In this document: positions 11,211 through 19,578 of the stretch, in pieces
How positions within the stretch are numbered: position 1 is the first letter of the stretch
Layout: the number at the start of each line of letters is the position of its first letter
From: Eremomyces bilateralis CBS 781.70
Taxonomy: Eukaryota
Assembly (NCBI GenBank): GCA_010015585.1
Contig: ML975154.1
DNA: 20,000 nucleotides
Reading direction: 5' to 3' (one strand)
The notes under the pieces: model-generated
What the model saw: only the letters and a program-made list of their open reading frames with translations
Databases searched by the model: none
Told to the model about the DNA's origin: nothing
Translations under genes and position numbers: made by a program

Positions 11211-12028
11211 TTTGGTTGATTTGGCAGACGTCGGTTCTCGTCGCAATGTGCTTTGAAATCTCTCGACTTGAGGAAGCGCAAAAGTGCGTATATCCCCTTG
11301 GTGATCGCTGGGGGTCTAATATTCCGATCAACTTGAAGAAGGTGGTATTGCGGCAGGATAAGTGTAACAGACAGCTCCTTTGTTCATGGGAATAGGTAGG
11401 TAGCTTGACTGATGGCACGCTTCATGAGACTCTGGAATGGAAACCTCTAGATCAGAGAAACGTTGTAATACCGGTACTTTTGTCCTGGAATCCTACTTCC
11501 TTCATTCTTAACTCAGGTACCCAATTCCTGATGTGAGATAAGCCGCTATCGCTGTCGGACAGCTTAGAAATCAATACTAGTTATGAACCAGCAGAGGATC
11601 ACTGTAACACTGTAAGACATGATTTGTCATGTATAGGCCTAAATACGGGAATATCAATAACTAACCCTGCTGTTAATCGTGCTCAGCCGATCGTTTGCGG
11701 CGTTGGAAAAATAGGTGAAAGTGGTAATTAGGATTTCATGTCTGGGACAAGTTCAGCGCTATCTGTAGTTAGGGGTCCGTGATTTAACTACGTAAATAAT
11801 CAAGAATGACCTCACTCCAGGCGGAACATCCATCCTAACCATCACTTATAGGTGCTCTCTTAATTTCCATCGCTGGTCCCCAATGTCACATCGGTAGTGG
11901 CCTGGACACTTCTTGTGTTCAATTCGATGGCGGAGATCAGTCCAAACGAGAGGACACCGTTCCATCCTCTAGCAATTAATACTACCATGCATACGATATA
12001 GATATAGCGGCACGATAGCGCAACAAAC

Positions 12029-13192
12029 ATGCGATTCCCACACATCCGATTACCACGCATCCCGTTCTTCCGCATCTGGTACTCGACCACCTACACCCTC
12101 CTCTTCTTCGTCATCTTCGTCCTCTCCGCCGTCATCCCCGGCGACCTCATCTACCAATCCATCCGTAAACCCCCCTCCCTCTCCCGCTTCAACACGAACA
12201 TCGCCAACATCTTCATCGTCGCCGGCGTCTACCTCCTCACCGGCCTCCTCATCGTCTTCATCTACGCTAGCCGCCTCTATACCAACCGCATCGTCCTCAC
12301 CGCCATCCCCAAATTCTACATCCCCGTCGAGGCCCCCGAGGTTGGGAAGAAGGTCCGCAAGCTGATCGAGCGCGAATGGGACCGCAGCGCCCTCATCGCC
12401 TGGGAGTCCCGCCCCCGCGACCTGGCCGCCGAGAACGACGCGCTCCATCCGTCCGCCACCCACGACACCACGGAGGAGATCCCGCATCATGCGCTGCCTG
12501 TCATGCGAAAGCGGACGCGCACGAAGGGTCGCGACTCGCCCGCCATGCCCATCGACCCGCTTAATCCGCCGTGGGGGATCATTTCACATCCAGGCTGGGA
12601 TACCGCGGATACGACGTTGGGGAATGTCGCGGATCTGGTGAGCTACGGGACCGTCATTGCGGAGTTGCCGAATCTCATCGAAGCGCGAGCCGTGTCGCTT
12701 GCTCCGGTGGATCCAATGCCCGTGCCACAGCTGGACAGCGACGATAATGCACCAAACATACCCGTCTCCAGGGTTGTAGCTTTGCTGCAGCGGTCCGAGA
12801 CGGCGGGGTTGCGGGAATATCTCATGCAGCTGGAAGGGCTTGGGGTGGTTCAATCATTCGATATGGCAGAAGAGTTTATTGGACGGTATGAACGAGCGAG
12901 GTTCTCCACGATCCCGGCGTCCAAAGACGAGTTCGATGAGCTCATGGTTGTGTTTGCGGAGCTCTTGAATGGGATGGAGCCCATAGATCTCGGGCTGGCT
13001 GATGAGATGCTGGCGTTTCAAGATCAAACCATGCATGGCATAGGCAGCTCGGATACGTATGAAGCCTCGTCTACTCCCGATGGCTCCGTTTTCAGATCTG
13101 CGATGCTGGCACAGGAGGAAGACGACGGCTCGGTTGGCGGGAATGCGAGTTTGTCGTCTGTGATTCGGAACACGGGGACCGAAACCAGGTGA
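12029..13192 (+). CDS. DLT1: Defect at low temperature protein 1 (Dlt1)-like membrane protein, 387 aa, intronless
   Basis: Two N-terminal TM helices with the family signature FFRIWYSTTYT..IPGD.IYQ and NIFIVAGVY..IYASRLYTNR..L.AIPK.YIPVE. Later conserved motifs PPWG.ISHPGW, ELPNLIEARAVSLAP and YERARFS. Confidence 0.85.
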   Translation: MRFPHIRLPRIPFFRIWYSTTYTLLFFVIFVLSAVIPGDLIYQSIRKPPSLSRFNTNIANIFIVAGVYLLTGLLIVFIYASRLYTNRIVLTAIPKFYIPVEAPEVGKKVRKLIEREWDRSALIAWESRPRDLAAENDALHPSATHDTTEEIPHHALPVMRKRTRTKGRDSPAMPIDPLNPPWGIISHPGWDTADTTLGNVADLVSYGTVIAELPNLIEARAVSLAPVDPMPVPQLDSDDNAPNIPVSRVVALLQRSETAGLREYLMQLEGLGVVQSFDMAEEFIGRYERARFSTIPASKDEFDELMVVFAELLNGMEPIDLGLADEMLAFQDQTMHGIGSSDTYEASSTPDGSVFRSAMLAQEEDDGSVGGNASLSSVIRNTGTETR

Positions 13193-13343
13193 AAGCAGCA
13201 ACCTCATGATATTGAAATATTCATCGATGCGCGCTGAAGTCGGCCTTCCAATCAGGTCCAGCCGCCTGGAATCGAACACCATCTAACGATCTATGACTCT
13301 ACCGAAACTAACGCCACGGCCTACAAGACGAAACAAGAACCAA

Positions 13344-14403
13344 TCACCAACTAACCACCCCCTTCTCCCGATCAAAACCCCCCCTTAACTGTCGCTCGGG
13401 CTTCACCACCTTCCCCTTCAAAACCGAATACCTCACGATATTCTCACAATCCTCCGGCCGCACCCTCCCCAACCAAATACACTGCGTCGCCCCATCCCCC
13501 TCCGCCTCACCCCGCCGGTAGATGACCACGTTGGCCGCAAACTTGTGCCCGCCGAAATGCGACACGAAGTACACCCCCGCCCCGCCTGGCCGTTCGTCGT
13601 CTATGTCCCGGAAGAGGCCGTGCGTGCGGAGGTGCCGGGCGAATTCTTTGTACAGGAGGGGGGCGGACTGGCCGCAGCGCGCGTCACGGGTGCGGTGGCT
13701 GCAGAGGAGGATGATGTATTTGTGGGGGCAGGGGCGGGGAAGCAGGTGGGGGGCCTTCTCACTGGAAGGTTGCGATGATAGGGATTCTTGTTTGCTCAGG
13801 GTCTTCTGGAGTTCTGGCGCTGGAGAAGGACTGGGGGTTTCTCGTTTCGTTGTGAGAGGGGTTGAGTTGGTTAGTGCAGTGTTGATGTGCTGCGAGATGA
13901 GGGTGGAGGTGTTGGACGGGACCACATTATCGATGATGGTGAAAGATGGGAGTAGGAGCACGGTCGTCGTGTCGTTGGACAAGGAGGCGGGCATGTTGGA
14001 GGCAGACACTATCAGTCGCCCGTCCGTCACCTTCTCATCCGATTTGGCGATCGCCTGCATGATGGAATCCGTCTCATCCGCGACATCGTGTTTCTAGCTA
14101 TCATCAGTTCCGAACCGGGACACACACATATATCTTTCGACGCACCCAATCGCTCTTCCCCGTAGCCACCAATATATGTCTATTCCACGGTTTTAGGTTG
14201 CCGTAGAGTTCCATGTCCTCGTTGATTTTGAATTTGGCGGGCAGCGACACGCTGCAGTTTTCGCAGTCATGCTCGCAATCTTCTCCGTCTATTGCCGGGT
14301 CGGTCTTGGAGAATAGTTCTTCTTTCTTCGCATGTATAAAGCCTGTCTGGTTCGGATCGGTTCCGTACACTCGGTTGACGATGCCTCGAAGCAATGACGC
14401 CAT
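13344..14403 (-). CDS. APD1: Apd1/Aim32-family thioredoxin-like [2Fe-2S] protein (sucrase/ferredoxin-like), 2 exons, 335 aa
   Basis: Exons 14403-14146 and 14093-13344; intron 52 nt, GTGCGT..CTGAT..TAG. Spliced motif ATGKSDW|KHDVADE, C-x8-C (CSHRTRDARC) and HxGGH (SHFGGHKFAAN), the 2Cys/2His ligand signature. The N-terminal CEHDC.NC motif and the lack of an obvious mitochondrial presequence favour Apd1. Confidence 0.85.
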
Positions 14404-14946
14404 AACTACAAGAATGGATGGACGAACTCGAATAGATCTCGACCTCTCAACTTTCAGATGCAAGATAGGGAAGGATAAAGTTTGGTACGAAGTGTGGGCG
14501 TGGAAGGAAATAATAGAAATTACTCTTCAAACATTTTTGCATGGAATATCGGCAGTATAAGGATATTTCTACACTCGATGGCAACGGCATTCGGCTGGCC
14601 CCATCGGCACTACAAATTACTACGGTACCATTCTACCGTTAACTAGCAAGGTATAAGACTTAAGAGTCATCAAATAAGCATTTTGATATTGCCTTAAATC
14701 TCCCCATACGGTATCAATGCGGTTAGTCTTCACCTGTAATTCCGCACTACTTTTAGTTGCGTCATTGCATCAGATTACGAATTCTGTCCATCTGATAATT
14801 GAAGCCCTGGGGTTCGGCGTCGCGCATGTGGAGGGTGCAATATTCATCCCACAGACACCCACTGCAACCTCCGTACGCACGTCCCAACCACGACACGTAA
14901 TCAGATGTACACGACGACATTTGAACAGCTGCACATAGCAGAATAA

Positions 14947-15975
14947 ATGTCAGCCACCTCTATCCTCCTCACCGGAGCTCCCACATGGGCGGACTTGGAC
15001 TGGGATGAAGCGGGTCTGCTGAAGGATTCCGACCTAAAGGCGCAACTCTCGGCGATTAGATCTCCCAGTCCGGCAAGACCGAGATGGCGGACCCTGGGAC
15101 TTGCAGATCTGGATATCACGACGACGCGGCCGGTTAGGTCGGGATTATCCGATGCAGCGACGCGACGAAATAGGCATGTTTCTTCGAATGAATCAGTGGG
15201 GGAGGATGAAGAGCTGGGAGACGATGCGGAGCGGACGTTTTTGGATGACTCGTTCGCGATACACGAGGAATTCGACGACCAGTCCAATAGCTCGATTTTA
15301 GCGACAGAAGAGTCCTCGTTTCGGGCTACGGGCGACTCTTCCACCAGCGCACCATACGTCCTCCAATCCTCCCCCATAACCGCCGCCCATCTTTCCTCCC
15401 TCCCTCGCATCCTCGACCTCTCCGCGCTTCCCACCGCCACCCACGTCTTCCGATCCCGCCACGGCCCGTGTCTCTCAGTGATCAAAGCCCACCTCCTCGT
15501 CGCCGTCGTCGCGATGTGCCCGCCGAAAGCGGTAACGGTGCGCAGTCCGCAGCAGCGCGGTCAGCGGATGGAGATCGTGGAGCTGGAAGTGGCGGACGAG
15601 ACGGCGGGGCGGTTTCGGATCTCGTTCTGGTTTGAGCCGTCGGAGCGCGGGGCGCGACGGGAGGCGGGGGAGGCAGATATGAGGGTGCAGCTGCGGCGTC
15701 AGGTCGAGACGCTGGAGATGGGCGATATGGTCTTGTTGACGGACATTGCGCTCAACGTGTTCAATGGGAGGGTGTGCGGACAGAGTGTTCGGGGTTGGGG
15801 GAATCGGGCAGGCACGAAGCTGTACCACCTGAGCGGTGTAGACGTGGTGCCAGGAGCGAGCCCTATCACGGAAAAGCTACAGAGAGTGAATAGGTGGCAA
15901 TTGGAAATGCTTGACCCGAGGAAAAGGAATCCCAAGCGACGTTGGCACGAGAGCCTTCCTCCAGATACACAGTAG
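14947..15975 (+). CDS. OB-fold nucleic-acid-binding protein resembling SHLD2/FAM35A (N-terminal motif plus first OB fold), 342 aa
   Basis: Single long ORF. Order of elements: N-terminal ILLTGAP..W(R/K)xL motif, acidic disordered linker, OB-like region (HLLVAVVAMCPPKAVTVR..MEIVELEVADET..FRISFW..GDMVLLTDIAL..VCGQS), basic NLS-like RKRNPKRR, terminal LPPDTQ. Confidence 0.75.
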   Translation: MSATSILLTGAPTWADLDWDEAGLLKDSDLKAQLSAIRSPSPARPRWRTLGLADLDITTTRPVRSGLSDAATRRNRHVSSNESVGEDEELGDDAERTFLDDSFAIHEEFDDQSNSSILATEESSFRATGDSSTSAPYVLQSSPITAAHLSSLPRILDLSALPTATHVFRSRHGPCLSVIKAHLLVAVVAMCPPKAVTVRSPQQRGQRMEIVELEVADETAGRFRISFWFEPSERGARREAGEADMRVQLRRQVETLEMGDMVLLTDIALNVFNGRVCGQSVRGWGNRAGTKLYHLSGVDVVPGASPITEKLQRVNRWQLEMLDPRKRNPKRRWHESLPPDTQ

Positions 15976-16128
15976 ATGAATGCACAATACAATATTGGCG
16001 CAAGACGTCGTTCAAGGTAGCAACTGCTGCTTGGATGATATTCTCTAATGTGATGTAGCCGTCCACCATTGCTCCGCATCCCGTTAACCCTCCTATAATC
16101 GTCAAGTCATTCCCATACGTTCATCATC

Positions 16129-17115
16129 TTACAGCACCGTCCCAAACCCAAACGTCATCTTTATACTCCGCACGTAATACTCCCCCCAATTCCGCTTCGT
16201 CACCTCCTCCTGGCCCGCCGGCACCCCCTCCCAGTTCACCCGCATCACCGTCACTCCGTCCACGTTGTTCTGATCGAAGTGGATCGCCAGCGTCGAGAAA
16301 TGCCCCGCCGGCCACTGTGCGAGCCGCCATTTCTGCACGATCCGCGTCGGCGCCGCCAGCTCCACGAACTCCCCGCTGACGTTCCCGCCGAACAACTCGA
16401 ACTTGCCGCCTTGCCGCGCGCCCTCCCATTGGCTGGGTGCGGCACGCGTGAAGGCGGCGACGCGTTGGGGATCAGTGAAGGTCTGGTAGAGTTGGTCGGC
16501 GCTGGTGCGGAACTCGGCGTCATCGTTTAGGGTCACGACGTTGACGTTGCTGGTGGGTGTGTGCAATGAACTTGCCGGTTTTGATGCATCGCTACCTTTC
16601 GGCGTTGAAGTGCTTGACACGTATTGTGGGGTGGTGAAGCCGCTGGATGGGTTGGCGCCCGGTGCATGCTGCAGGTCTTTGCCATGCTCGGCGATGAGGG
16701 CCGGGGCGAGCTCGACGAGTTTCTTACGGAGTTGGGGAGTGAGTTTGGAGCGGACGAGGTCTTTGACGGCTTGCTTCTTCTCCGACTCGGAGTAGACATC
16801 CACGTCAAAGACGAACTCGTCCTCCTCGGTATCGTGAGCGACCTCAGGGACCGTGATGGTGCCGCTGACGTCCTCTCCTTCCGCGTTCTTGCCGCTGTAT
16901 TCCAACTGCAGCTTCACGTCGAACAAGGTGATGACCTTGTTCTTCCGTTGGCTCACGTCGACGTCCCCGTCCATGCTGATGATTTTATCGACCTTGGCGG
17001 TGATATCACCGTCCTGGGCTTCGACAGTGGAGAGTTCTTTCTCCAACCACTCCTTCGCCCACACAGAAACATCTTTATTGACCCAATGCCAATTGTTGGG
17101 GTTGTGAAGCACCAT
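16129..17115 (-). CDS. AHA1: Hsp90 co-chaperone Aha1, 328 aa, intronless CDS
   Basis: Starts MVLHNPNNWHWVNKD (NxNNWHW motif) at the ATG at 17115, in a GCCACCATGG context. Contains RKNKVITLFD, PEVAHD and a C-terminal START-like domain ending SIKMTFGFGTVL. Confidence 0.96.
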   Translation of the reverse strand: MVLHNPNNWHWVNKDVSVWAKEWLEKELSTVEAQDGDITAKVDKIISMDGDVDVSQRKNKVITLFDVKLQLEYSGKNAEGEDVSGTITVPEVAHDTEEDEFVFDVDVYSESEKKQAVKDLVRSKLTPQLRKKLVELAPALIAEHGKDLQHAPGANPSSGFTTPQYVSSTSTPKGSDASKPASSLHTPTSNVNVVTLNDDAEFRTSADQLYQTFTDPQRVAAFTRAAPSQWEGARQGGKFELFGGNVSGEFVELAAPTRIVQKWRLAQWPAGHFSTLAIHFDQNNVDGVTVMRVNWEGVPAGQEEVTKRNWGEYYVRSIKMTFGFGTVL

Positions 17116-17162
17116 GGTGGCGAGGTGAAGAGTTTTGTTGATATCCAACGGGTATGTTTCGG

Positions 17163-17354
17163 CTAAGCTCAAAATTGTCAGCCTGTGTCCGCTCAAAATT
17201 GAATTAAGCCAGTTATGACAATGAAGGTCGATCAGTTAATGCATATAAGGTGAAATGTCCACATTGTAATGAGTACAAGTCGTTCGGATTGGTGCACAGC
17301 ATGTATAATCATCATTCGACGCGGGAAACGGAGGGGATTGGAAATCAGACATAC
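17163..17354 (-). other. Predicted 192-nt 5'-UTR intron of AHA1 (snoRNA host intron)
   Basis: Donor AAG|GTATGT at 17354, branch site GCTGAC near 17178-17183, acceptor TTAG| at 17163. It ends about 47 nt upstream of the AHA1 ATG. Confidence 0.75.
17227..17320 (-). ncRNA. snR40: Box C/D snoRNA, likely snR40 orthologue (guide for 18S Gm1271, yeast numbering)
   Basis: Terminal stem GTCGA/TCGAC, box C ATGATGA (17315-17309), D' CCGA (17287-17284), C'-like TGTGGA, box D CTGA (17235-17232). The D' guide GCTGTGCACCA pairs with conserved 18S UGGUGCAUGGC (11 bp, 2 GU). The D'+5 rule lands on the G equivalent to G1271. Confidence 0.85.
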
Positions 17355-17556
17355 CTTTTGTATTTTCAGCTGCTAAAGAGCTGTCGAGGCAACTCAGCTA
17401 GCGAGATGGAGTGTCATTAAGGTGGATGAAGGTTTTGTAACCAAATAAACATGAGAGGAGGTGTGAGAGGAGGTGTGGTTGATGGATGGGCTCTTGAAGA
17501 GCGAACAGCCCGGGCTGGAAAGTTGTAGAAGTTCATGGACGAGAGGTGAAGTAAAG

Positions 17557-17564: not shown

Positions 17565-17891
17565 CTTCGTGAGCCTAGGGTTAATTCTCTGGGACCCACC
17601 TTTGACCCTCTAAAAAAACCCTCCTCGCTACAGGCCTAGAGCTATGTGCGAATTGCGATTAGACACGCGAATATTAATACGACAGATTACGCAGCACCAT
17701 GGAGCAGAAATTTGTTGAATTTACGTGGATATCATTGAACCCGTCACGCTTAACATACAAATTCCGCAAATTTTATCTCAGTTCATCCAAACCGAGCTCC
17801 GGTTCTGCCGAACCTTTAAGACGCCTCACTCCATGCGAACCACGGATTCGTGGAGATGCTAAGACTGCTACCGACTCATCTAGAGACTAAT

Positions 17892-19011
17892 CTAGATCTT
17901 GATGGCGTTCTCGATAGCCTTGCGCTTCTTCTCCTGGCGAGCATTGGCCTTGGCGCCCATGATACCACCACCCCAGTGACGACGGGCCTCGTCAGCCTTC
18001 TCACCATAGCCCTCCTTGATGGCGGAAACGAGCTTGGAGAACTCGTTCTTGTCCTCAGCGCGGACCTCGGTCAGAGCCAAGACAGCAGCGGTCTGGAAAA
18101 GTTAGTTTCAGTGTATCGATGTAGAGTTTGTTGAATTACCTTCTTGTGGACAACAGTCCCCAATCGGGCCTTGCCCTTGACAATGGCGTAAGGGACACCC
18201 ATCTTTTTGCAGAGAGTGGGGAGGAAGATGACAAGCTCGATGGGGTCAACATCGTTGGCAATAAGGACCAGAGATGCCTTCTTGTTCTCGATGAGCCCAA
18301 CAATATGGTTCAAGCCGTACTTGACGGTGTAGGGCTTCTTGCTGACGTCCTCCTTCTTCTTTCCCTCGGCAACAGCGGTAGCCTCCTGGTGCAGACGATC
18401 CTTCTTCTCAGGCTTAGTCTCAGGTCGGTACTTGTTGAGCAGCTTGAAGCTCTGAGCGGCGGTGTTGCGGTCGAGAGTGTGCTGGAATTGGGCGATTTGC
18501 GGCGGGACCTTCAGGCGCATGTTGAGGATCTTCTTCTGGCGCTGAAGACGGACATACTCGGGCCACTTCACCATGCGCCCGAGGTTGCGCTTCGGTTGGA
18601 TGTCTTGGCCGATACCGAAGTTTCGGGTGCGCTTCTCGATGAGAGGGTTCTACATGATGTGAGCGCAATGAAATATATGATAGGAAGATGTTACGAACCT
18701 TGACCTGCTTCTTGCTGCCAGCCTTCCCTCCTGCGAAGGGCGCGGGCGCGGGCGCCGCTTTCTTTCCTTTGGGTGGCTGTCATTGAGAGAGAACCATCAG
18801 CAACTGTTTATCCAGAAGAGGTTTCTCGTCTCTAAGAGCAAGGTTCCACCAGTGGAAGACCTTGCTCAGCCGTTTCTCATCCATTATTAGCAAGGACGAT
18901 GAAATCGTCCTGCTTGGATTGAGTGCACGAACACGACGACCATGGGTTGTCGCATTGTATTGCAATTGGGGAAAGGGTCAACGACCCGAGGGGAAGATGC
19001 TAGCTTACCAT
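17892..19011 (-). CDS. RPL8: 60S ribosomal protein eL8 (yeast L8 / L7a), 4 exons, 263 aa
   Basis: Exons 19011-19009 (ATG only), 18776-18699, 18649-18140 and 18092-17892; introns 232, 49 and 47 nt. Protein [70 protein letters not shown]. Confidence 0.97.
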
Positions 19012-19578
19012 GATGAAGGATATTGTATCAAGAACTTGAAGCTGACACAGAAAGGAAGATGTAGAGGTTGACAAAGGATGTTGAAGTGGACGATGAAAAG
19101 CGAAGATATTGTGTGGAATCGCTTATGAATTTTTGTTTCCGAGGATCTGCCGAAGTGTGGGTCAAATTGGTGCCTTAGGCCTCAACTTCCAGCCAGACAT
19201 GGCCAGCCGCTTCTACTTTATCTCAGTTGGGACTCAGGCGGCAATGGTGCCCCCTGGCCATTATGGGGCTCCGCTATACCCAATGAAGCCCAGCCTCTTC
19301 TTTAGCACACGCCACTAAATATTGACCAATCATGCGCCTTGAAGGCAGAGGGCACCACTGCCGTCTGAGAGACTCTTGCATAGTTTGTGTGGAGGTGTAC
19401 AGCTTCATATCGTGAAATAGGTGAGAGAACTCCCATCGCTAAGTGTACTTGATACAGAATGGCTATCGCTAATATGTTTTCAGAAATTGATTCTACGCGT
19501 TGACTTCTACATTTCATCAAGTTTTAGGACCAACCCAACCACTCTACAGTCCAAGAACGCATCATCTTCCTCTTCACC

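Follow-up and report, generated by a model that had tools for sequence, protein, structure and literature searches.

An uncharacterised family of single OB-fold proteins in Pezizomycotina is a candidate for a fungal shieldin component

The window, a stretch of 20,000 nucleotides from contig ML975154.1 of Eremomyces bilateralis CBS 781.70 (assembly GCA_010015585.1), carries an intact and intronless coding sequence at 14947..15975 on the plus strand. According to the ORF list and its translation it runs from ATG to TAG and specifies a protein of 342 amino acids in 342 codons plus a stop. An ORF of 194 amino acids overlaps it on the antisense strand, and no MluI-box promoter element was seen by eye upstream of it. 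An unspliced transcript-type contig of 1294 nt from run X1 matches positions 14693..15982 (plus strand) with 0 differences and 0 gaps and takes in the entire ORF together with a 5' leader and 7 nt past the stop. In neighbouring minus-strand genes, further contigs from this run leave out five short stretches that have CT..AC ends, so that run X1, which has no RNA record, looks like spliced mRNA. From these intron-like joints we infer that the run is RNA-derived and that the gene is expressed as well as intronless.

The product aligns over its full length with relatives, with neither frameshift nor stop, and 64 of them align from M1 through the C-terminal DTQ; it is almost certainly a real protein of a conserved family. 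At E<=1e-3 it is matched by 452 representative proteins, 195 of them at E<=1e-10, and the best match other than itself (7.9e-25) spans the protein end to end. The family occurs in several classes of Pezizomycotina, has no name, and every label attached to its members is hypothetical. A word-indexed homologue search with the single protein found no match besides itself, and the same search with the family alignment (A1) found 5 proteins, all of them Dothideomycete hypotheticals or the query.

Members of the family are about 340-400 amino acids long and share one layout: the N-terminal half is disordered and carries three short conserved motifs, and it is followed by one OB fold of the RPA70/POT1 class, a helix, a basic patch and a tail of the form LPPD[TS][QP]. 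This is an uncharacterised but real family of OB adaptors. Conservation was counted over 150 relatives of the 342-aa protein, and at several conserved OB columns the protein itself deviates from the family consensus. The strings on which the original prediction relied are all present in the translation: TSILLTGAP (residues 4-12), RPRWRTLGL (44-52), an acidic stretch (about 85-112), LLVAVVAMCPPKAV (183-196), IVELEVADET (210-219), ISFW (225-228), GDMVLLTDI (259-267), GQS (278-280), the basic RKRNPKRRW (325-333) and a terminal TQ (341-342).

The first N-terminal motif (residues 4-25, 14956..15021, plus strand), recognised by family conservation, consists of a hydrophobic strand, G-A-P and L-x-W-x-E-x-x-L-L. 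Its proximal part is kept at L8 (121/150), G10 (137/150), A11 (121/150) and P12 (136/150), its distal part at L17 (129/150), W19 (120/150) and L24 (122/150). Residues 11-36 are partly helical in the AlphaFold2 monomer model at a pLDDT of about 78, so this motif may pack in cis. The second motif, P-[KR]-W-R-x-[LVI]-x-hydrophobic (residues 45-52, 15079..15102, plus strand), likewise defined by family conservation, lies in a disordered linker where residues 44-88 have pLDDT below 50; 137 of the 150 relatives have W47 and as many R48, and L, V or I stands at position 50 in 138. Because it is disordered and nevertheless kept, this W-R motif behaves as a partner-binding linear motif. The third, F-[LY]-[ED]-H-S-x-A, belongs to an acidic helix at residues 92-112 (15220..15282, plus strand) that is defined by the model (pLDDT about 80) and by conservation of F98 (124/150), S102 (144/150) and A104 (116/150).

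The OB-fold barrel, of the RPA70/POT1 class, covers residues ~147-300 (15385..15846, plus strand) and is delimited by AlphaFold2, Foldseek, VIA, conservation and Pfam. In the model pLDDT exceeds 90 across most of residues 150-325 and the OB strands lie at 180-294. A single OB fold had been predicted; the model indeed has one barrel, backed by matches in Foldseek and VIA, and it contains a G-D-E-T turn, the invariant W228 and an aromatic residue at 272. Foldseek against the PDB gave 43 matches at E<=1e-3 (8aa9_A, E 7.8e-6), led by RPA1 OB-1, RPA70 DBD-A/B, human SSB and Sulfolobus SSB. The top solved folds in VIA were POT1 OB1 (Z 12.3, rmsd 3.2, 128 aligned), RPA70 DBD-B (Z 11.6, rmsd 3.3, 126 aligned) and TEBP-alpha (Z 10.7). 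By both methods the modelled five-stranded barrel appears closest to ssDNA-binding OB domains. The Foldseek run proposed in the original prediction bore out an OB fold of the ssDNA-binding class; together with VIA it gave POT1 and RPA70 as the nearest solved folds.

Compared with the PDB by sequence, the single 342-aa protein had 0 matches and the full-length family profile matched Sulfolobus SSB alone (E 0.007). The profile alignment places W228 on W56 of that protein, and the turn V-G-D-E-T-G is common to both. W56 of Sulfolobus SSB presumably stacks on DNA. D217 and W228 are each found in 150/150 relatives and F, Y or W at 272 in 149/149, so both canonical base-stacking aromatic positions, on strands 3 and 4/5, appear from the aligned residues to be kept in the family. 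It is likely that the OB fold binds ssDNA.

Past the barrel, the model and conservation define a helix at residues 306-322 (15862..15912, plus strand) with K310 in 133/150, V314 in 137/150, W317 in 145/150 and F321 in 134/150; the 342-aa protein has M at 321 against the F of the family. The helix is a possible partner interface. The basic patch RKRNPKRRW (residues 325-333, 15919..15945, plus strand), taken from the translation and from family columns that are mostly R, K and G, would by its composition be NLS-like. The tail L-P-P-D-T-Q (residues 337-342, 15955..15972, plus strand) is defined by family conservation of L337 (137/150), P338 (144/150), P339 (110/150) and D340 (136/150), followed by T341 in 130/150 (S in 13) and Q342 in 115/150 (P in 19, L in 7). 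The terminal TQ had been read as a PIKK site; it is present at 341-342 but is not universal, the protein ending in TP in 19/150 relatives.

According to the original prediction, the protein retains both the REV7-docking motif and the first OB fold (OB1) of SHLD2 and lacks the further OB folds. The most serious competitor of this reading is that the family is a fungus-specific ssDNA-binding protein of the RPA/POT1 class whose partners do not include REV7 and which might act, for instance, at telomeres, stalled forks or recombination intermediates. The SHLD2_OB1 match would then reflect general OB similarity, and the N-terminal likeness chance or convergence. We regard this explanation as tenable, if somewhat doubtful. 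The order of the top solved folds, with POT1 OB1, RPA70 DBD-B and TEBP-alpha at its head, is in its favour, as is the fact that Sulfolobus SSB is the only match of the family profile in the PDB. On the other hand, the PDB fold lists from Foldseek and VIA contain no SHLD2 OB chain, hence these searches give no comparison with SHLD2 and its absence from them cannot rank it.

The N-terminal motifs speak against it. In a gapless alignment on G-A-P, L8, A11 and P12 of the family correspond to F10, A13 and P14 of human SHLD2 (residue 12 of which we take to be Gly), and W47-R48-x-phi50-x-phi52 corresponds to W36-K37-x-I39-x-L41. According to passages of Liang et al. (2020), human F10, A13, P14, W36, K37, I39 and L41 contact O-REV7, REV7 Tyr63 and SHLD3 in the crystal structure. 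The columns that match these contacts are the most conserved N-terminal columns among the 150 relatives, and the two best-conserved N-terminal motifs thereby match the REV7/SHLD3 contacts in order and in register. Conservation of the GAP and W-[RK]-x-hydrophobic motifs in orthologues had been set beforehand as a refutation test, and both are kept, as G10 and W47 show with 137/150 each. An N-terminal profile (A3, built on 25 hand-picked N-termini of the 65 in alignment A1) did not bring up any SHLD2 chain among PDB matches at E<=10, which favours the fungus-specific explanation; its two matches, to PEG10 (E 0.37) and a histone methyltransferase (E 0.88), were at chance level. A search of the ESM Atlas with residues 1-120 gave no usable match. 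The proposed docking motif, a putative counterpart of the N-terminal beta1/beta2 segment by which SHLD2 binds O-REV7 and SHLD3, shows matching and conserved contact residues and no profile match to SHLD2.

For OB1 the evidence is also divided. Pfam SHLD2_OB1 (PF21669) matches residues 180-230 on profile positions 20-70 of 138 at E 1.5e-6, scoring 28.4 bits where the cut-off is 26, and it is the only Pfam family for the 342-aa protein even at E<=10, which argues against a merely fungus-specific OB protein. The suspicion that a domain-level annotation might already exist was correct: PF21669 is precomputed for this protein, and the label is to that extent already known in databases. Among the relatives, at E<=0.01, 5/150 match SHLD2_OB1, 9/150 REPA_OB_2 and 2/150 Ssb-like_OB, a distribution that favours the RPA/POT1 class. 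The 342-aa protein is itself one of the 5 that match SHLD2_OB1, and of the remaining four at least two score below the cut-off. Because the 342-aa protein deviates at conserved OB columns, its match above the threshold may be partly accidental. That OB1 is kept is supported for the protein itself by PF21669 above its cut-off, but the OB folds of the family as a whole do not clearly favour SHLD2.

The nearest fungal clusters in the ESM Atlas are listed with PF21669 as their sole Pfam family (19% of 114 and 26% of 70 members), which again counts against the fungus-specific explanation. The Atlas also points to possible members in Basidiomycota, in a cluster of 306 amino acids. By predicted structure the first named non-fungal neighbours are chordate SHLD2 clusters, with TM values of 0.42 and 0.40 that lie under the bar of the tool. 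By features the fungal clusters are followed by POT1PC and POT1 clusters (0.81-0.79); these favour the RPA/POT1 class, and the tool offers them as leads only. Nor did the full-length family profile pick up a SHLD2 chain of the PDB at E<=10, and a profile search with alignment A1 among longer proteins gave nothing at E<=10, a result that the tool itself rates as weak evidence. PF22779 and PF15793 (second and third OB folds, SHLD2_C), which make up the module of SHLD2 that binds ssDNA and SHLD1, are present in 98-100% of the members of the SHLD2 clusters in the ESM Atlas, and neither matches the 342-aa protein at E<=10. With its 342 amino acids and one barrel the protein is therefore without the further OB folds, as predicted, and this architecture, with no second and third OB folds and no C-terminal domain, rules out a full SHLD2. 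Taken together, the SHLD2 reading of the family is partly supported.

A second alternative is that the protein is a stand-alone, SSB-like protein in which the first motif, together with the acidic helix at residues 92-112, covers the DNA-binding face of the OB fold as a cap or auto-inhibitor and the tail regulates this, with no docking to REV7. It would fit that residues 11-30 (pLDDT about 78) and the helix are modelled fairly confidently and the linkers between them are not, and that the helix is acidic, as expected of an ssDNA mimic. The W-R motif, however, is kept in 137/150 relatives in spite of a pLDDT below 50, and we consider the intramolecular cap improbable. That the ORF arose by chance in GC-rich DNA or is a pseudogene in decay, as the antisense ORF and the departures of the 342-aa protein from consensus at conserved columns might suggest, is refuted for practical purposes by the full-length alignment, the gapless transcript-type contig and the confident OB model.

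Returning to the SHLD2 reading, we propose that the protein would be a compact nuclear ssDNA adaptor that operates on the SHLD2 principle. Its single RPA70/POT1-class OB fold may grip ssDNA by W228 and the aromatic residue at 272. The hydrophobic strand with G-A-P and the W-R-x-hydrophobic motif some 35 residues further on would form a two-strand element for partner docking. For the partner, the leading candidate is REV7, a HORMA protein, probably joined by a SHLD3- or Njf1-type seat-belt ligand. Another small subunit might pair with the C-terminal helix, and the LPPD[TS][QP] tail could be a phospho-regulated or docking motif. That the protein docks REV7 and acts like SHLD2 is a good possibility, though short of probable; true common descent with SHLD2 is somewhat more doubtful. 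Somewhat less likely again is a minimal shieldin of Dikarya in which the one-OB protein is the counterpart of SHLD2, docks REV7 by its G-A-P and W-R strands together with a fast-evolving ligand of the SHLD3/Njf1 type, binds ssDNA at resected ends and favours end-joining or fill-in by Pol zeta / Pol alpha.

The family is a testable fungal shieldin candidate, not a proven one, and it resembles SHLD2, a factor that protects DNA ends in animals, in the docking tip and the first DNA-binding domain of the latter. Shieldin is generally regarded as a vertebrate invention. NHEJ dominates in filamentous fungi. For ascomycetes the family offers a concrete and easily tested candidate, and if the proposal is true, the SHLD2-REV7 module predates the split of fungi and animals, the Aspergillus and Neurospora models gain a missing factor in NHEJ choice, the evolutionary picture of DSB-pathway choice changes, and there is a new lever to raise the efficiency of gene targeting in filamentous fungi. 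If the SHLD2 link fails, the family, unnamed and conserved, remains a probable ssDNA-binding protein whose four linear motifs still call for an explanation.

Our literature search found no paper naming a fungal SHLD2-like protein. Passages of a 2024 Cryptococcus preprint (PMC11526942) describe the shieldin subunits besides Rev7 as undetectable outside vertebrates and state that following the fungal shieldin-like pathway past the basidiomycetes needs experiments. A study of yeast Rev7 in eLife takes as its starting point that several eukaryotes lack orthologues of SHLD1-3. The same Cryptococcus preprint reports, in its passages on this point, that an NHEJ pathway associated with Rev7, Rif1 and Rev3 is present in Cryptococcus, and those passages (PMC11526942) name no ssDNA-binding component of the Njf1 pathway.

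Njf1 of Cryptococcus neoformans (CNAG_00817) is, according to those passages, required in NHEJ and purifies together with Rev7, Rif1 and Rev3; it is a fungal factor linked to a shieldin-like route (PMC11526942). It is described there as a SHLD3-like seat-belt ligand of Rev7, not an OB protein, and the supplement gives it 650 amino acids, no predicted domain and conservation in Tremellomycetes only; by this description no link between the family and Njf1 is established. None of the 9 proteins looked up among the top 49 rows of the single-replicate Njf1 zeocin AP-MS list in the preprint has an OB annotation, and the domain table of the preprint has no entry for 'shieldin', SHLD2 or PF21669.

POT1 OB1, RPA70 DBD-B and TEBP-alpha are the best solved structural matches of the barrel (Z 12.3 to 10.7 over some 126-132 residues). 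These proteins, however, place two or more tandem OB folds on ssDNA, whereas the fungal protein has one, and they lack a sequence-level family match except for the weak REPA_OB_2 in 9/150 relatives. Sulfolobus SSB and human SSB1/NABP2 (SOSS-B1) share with the family one RPA-like OB fold, a G-D-E-T-G turn, a tryptophan in strand 3 and a flexible tail that binds partners. In these proteins the OB fold comes first, at the N-terminus, with the tail after it, while the disordered motif half of the fungal protein precedes the OB fold, and identity in the fold alignments is 13-19%.

Vertebrate SHLD2 (FAM35A/RINN2) is larger, with 775-913 amino acids in its Atlas clusters against about 340-400 in the fungal family, and it has three OB folds with PF22779/PF15793 where the fungal protein has one. 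The statistical sequence link between the two is confined to OB1, and the fungal motifs L-x-W-x-E..LL, F-L-E-H-S and LPPDTQ have no demonstrable counterpart in SHLD2. The order of parts is nevertheless the same: the docking element comes first, right at the N-terminus, and a long disordered stretch separates it from an RPA-like OB fold. The motifs phi-x-phi-phi-x-G-A-P and W-[KR]-x-phi-x-phi coincide with the residues by which human SHLD2 contacts REV7 and SHLD3.

The gene at 14947-15975 (+) is real. It is one uninterrupted ORF of 342 codons, with ATG as start and TAG as stop, and its translation contains all the sequence strings quoted in the original prediction, which proposed a compact fungal SHLD2-like protein. 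One public sequencing run covers the locus, although its record does not give RNA as the type. Contigs of this run jump five short stretches in the adjoining minus-strand genes (joints 14093>14146, 17162>17355, 18092>18140, 18649>18699 and 18776>19009). Their CT..AC ends are those of GT..AG introns seen from the opposite strand (14094-14145, 17163-17354, 18093-18139, 18650-18698 and 18777-19008). A 1294-nt contig on 14693-15982 spans the whole ORF with 0 differences and 0 gaps. From the contig joints we take the run to consist of spliced cDNA, with the gene present as an unspliced transcript. When 65 near-full-length relatives are aligned, the alignment extends from M1 as far as the terminal DTQ, and nothing in it points to a missing exon. 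The transcript-type contig starts at 14693, and its first ATG opens an upstream ORF of 73 codons (14717-14938, +) in another frame than the main ORF, with a stop 9 nt short of the main start codon (14947); this upstream ORF may restrict translation of the main one. On the other strand, an ORF of 194 aa (14901-15485, -) overlaps the gene's 5' half and has probably arisen as a side effect of GC-rich coding sequence.

No link to DNA repair is evident for the neighbouring sucrase/ferredoxin-like (13344-14463, -), Aha1 (Hsp90 co-chaperone; 16129-17400, -) and L7Ae-family (17841-19038, -) genes. A 387-aa ORF (12029-13192, +) has no Pfam family at E<=1e-3, and one contig of the run described above spans it without gaps (12000-13295); it is an uncharacterised expressed neighbour.

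In a library-wide HMMER search, 452 representative proteins matched at E<=1e-3, and 195 of these also passed E<=1e-10. Most have 320-420 aa, and the top match other than the protein itself aligns with it end to end (37% identity, E 7.9e-25). Relatives are found in Dothideomycetes (Saxophila, lineage checked; Rhizodiscina, Oleoguttula, Polyplosphaeria, Cladosporium, Elsinoe, Myriangium and Bogoriella), Eurotiomycetes (Uncinocarpus, lineage checked; Penicillium and Aspergillus tanneri) and Thelocarpales (lineage checked), and also in Caloplaca and Squamulea, which we take to be Lecanoromycetes, Sclerotinia borealis (presumably Leotiomycetes) and Chrysothrix (presumably Arthoniomycetes). All named relatives are annotated as hypothetical or uncharacterised. 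The ESM Atlas suggests a basidiomycete cluster of 306-aa proteins (feature score 0.96) as putative further relatives.

Among 150 representatives, two N-terminal motifs are strongly conserved. Motif 1 (residues 4-25) consists of a basic residue, a hydrophobic strand, G-A-P and L-x-W-x-E-x-x-L-L (L8 in 121, G10 137, A11 121, P12 136, L17 129, W19 120, L24 122); the misses are mostly N-terminally truncated gene models, with 12-14 gaps per column. Motif 2 (residues 45-52) reads P-[KR]-W-R-x-[LVI]-x-hydrophobic (W47 in 137, R48 137, L/V/I at position 50 138). By regular expression, G[AS]P lies within the first 45 residues in 129/150, and WR follows it in 126/150. The conservation of G-A-P and of the tryptophan motif in orthologues, which had been proposed as a test, is thus borne out. 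Next come an acidic helix (92-112) with the motif F-[LY]-[ED]-H-S-x-A (F98 124/150, S102 144/150), an OB barrel (about 147-300; D217 150/150, T219 142/150, W228 150/150, an aromatic residue at 272 in 149/149, and G-Q-S-L at 278-281 kept in 146, 142, 137 and 141 of 150), a C-terminal helix (306-322; K310 133/150, V314 137, W317 145, F321 134) and a basic patch (325-333). The protein ends at residue 342 in the tail L-P-P-D-T-Q, with its final three columns at window 15964-15972 (L337 137/150, P338 144, D340 136, T341 130 with S in 13, Q342 115). The terminal TQ had been read as a PIKK consensus; D-T-Q does occur in most relatives, but the last position is P in 19 and L in 7 of the 150 and S replaces T in 13, so the conserved feature is L-P-P-D-[TS] and not a strict or universal PIKK S/T-Q site.

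Judged by this alignment, the protein is a divergent member of its own family. At near-invariant positions it has H for P at 172, S for Q at 177, V for T at 178, K for T at 180, H for N at 182, R for G at 222, E for R at 257 and M for F at 321 (within window 15460-15910), and it carries a 4-residue insertion at 173-176.

With the 65-sequence alignment as input, AlphaFold2 gave a model of mean pLDDT 74, with most of 150-325 above 90, residues 11-30 and the helix 92-112 at about 78-80, and 44-88 and 116-138 below 50. Foldseek returned 43 matches in the PDB at E<=1e-3; archaeal RPA1 OB-1 (8aa9, E 7.8e-6) heads the list, with RPA70 DBD-A/B (1fgu, 1jmc), human SSB (5d8f), Sulfolobus SSB (1o7i), TEBP-alpha and POT1 among the other leading matches. 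VIA, independent of Foldseek, ranked POT1 OB1 first (Z 12.3, rmsd 3.2, 128 aligned), followed by RPA70 DBD-B (11.6), Ustilago RPA70 (11.1), Pyrococcus RPA1 OB-1 (10.8) and TEBP-alpha (10.7). Sulfolobus SSB was the only match of the full-length family profile to PDB sequences (E 0.007). Its V-G-D-E-T-G turn aligns with that of the family, and its W56, as counted from the alignment, with the family's invariant tryptophan; W56 stacks on ssDNA. We therefore class the domain as an OB fold of the ssDNA type that keeps its stacking positions, and it would be expected to bind DNA.

SHLD2_OB1 (PF21669) is the sole Pfam family that the protein matches, also when the threshold is relaxed to E<=10; the match scores 28.4 bits, above the family's cut-off of 26, and the label was already precomputed, as the original prediction had anticipated for a domain-level annotation. 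It is also the only Pfam family listed for the nearest fungal clusters of the ESM Atlas (19% of 114 members, 26% of 70). When Atlas clusters are compared by predicted structure, two chordate SHLD2 clusters come first among the named neighbours outside fungi (TM by query 0.42 and 0.40) and rank before MEIOB; all of these lie below the tool's bar. By Atlas features, the named clusters following the fungal ones are POT1-type. At E<=0.01, SHLD2_OB1 is found in 5/150 relatives (3/65 and 2/85, the latter two short of the cut-off with 18.2 and 22.0 bits) against 9/150 for REPA_OB_2 (4 and 5; best E 1.7e-4, the matches shown all below that family's cut-off of 27) and 2/150 for Ssb-like_OB. Because the protein departs from the family at conserved OB columns (172, 177, 178, 180, 182, 222, 257, 321), its above-threshold match could be partly luck.

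SHLD2 chains are expected in the PDB since Liang et al. 2020 (PMC7181697) report the SHLD3-REV7-SHLD2 complex as a crystal structure; none was among the matches at E<=10, either with the full-length profile or with a profile of 25 hand-picked N-termini. The best matches of the latter, PEG10 (E 0.37) and, ranked second, a K-W-R-S-L-P string in the histone-lysine methyltransferase chain 6nzo_S (E 0.88), are at chance level. Among longer proteins the family profile had no match at E<=10, which is weak evidence according to the tool's note.

The N-terminus is the strongest point for a link to SHLD2. In a gap-free alignment on G-A-P, with position 12 of human SHLD2 presumably glycine, L8, A11 and P12 of the family correspond to human F10, A13 and P14, and W47-R48-x-phi50-x-phi52 corresponds to W36-K37-x-I39-x-L41. 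In the complex described by Liang et al. 2020 (PMC7181697), V7, I9, W11, K37, I39, L41, Y43, L48 and L50 of human SHLD2 pack on SHLD3 and F10 on O-REV7, and the conserved Tyr63 of REV7 makes contact with F10, A13, P14 and W36. In the N-terminal part of the fungal family, conservation is highest at the aligned columns named above (L8, A11, P12 and those of the W47-R48 motif).

The SHLD2-like reading thus stands in part, through the SHLD2_OB1 match and the matched contact residues, and is weakened by the domain counts and the PDB searches. Tentatively, at somewhat less than even probability, we favour a compact adaptor on the SHLD2 principle, in which the OB fold would sit on ssDNA, the N-terminal two-motif element would dock REV7 or a REV7-ligand pair, and the tail would be regulated. 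The main rival, at a probability only slightly lower, is an ssDNA-binding adaptor of the same kind with another partner. In the literature searched there was no mention of such a fungal SHLD2-like protein.

A fungal shieldin-like pathway has been described in Cryptococcus neoformans, where a knock-out atlas found Njf1 (CNAG_00817) to be required for NHEJ; Rev7, Rif1 and Rev3 co-purify with Njf1, which is modelled as a Rev7 seat-belt ligand (PMC11526942). According to these authors, Rev7 is the only detectable shieldin subunit outside vertebrates and Njf1 orthologues are seen in basidiomycetes only. Njf1 is listed in their supplement as 650 aa without predicted domain, and by these descriptors it is set apart from the OB family. 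None of nine proteins looked up in the domain table, from the top 49 rows of their single-replicate AP-MS list, has an OB annotation.

Compared with SHLD2, which has further OB and C-terminal domains, the fungal protein has one OB fold only, as originally predicted, and no Pfam match to the second-OB and C-terminal SHLD2 families (PF22779, PF15793). The architecture therefore fails one defining SHLD2 feature, and on this ground full SHLD2 family membership should not be assigned. The two are alike in the order of docking tip (putative in the fungal protein), disordered region and OB fold. Njf1 resembles SHLD3 in its role, which leaves a SHLD2-like ssDNA-binding role vacant.
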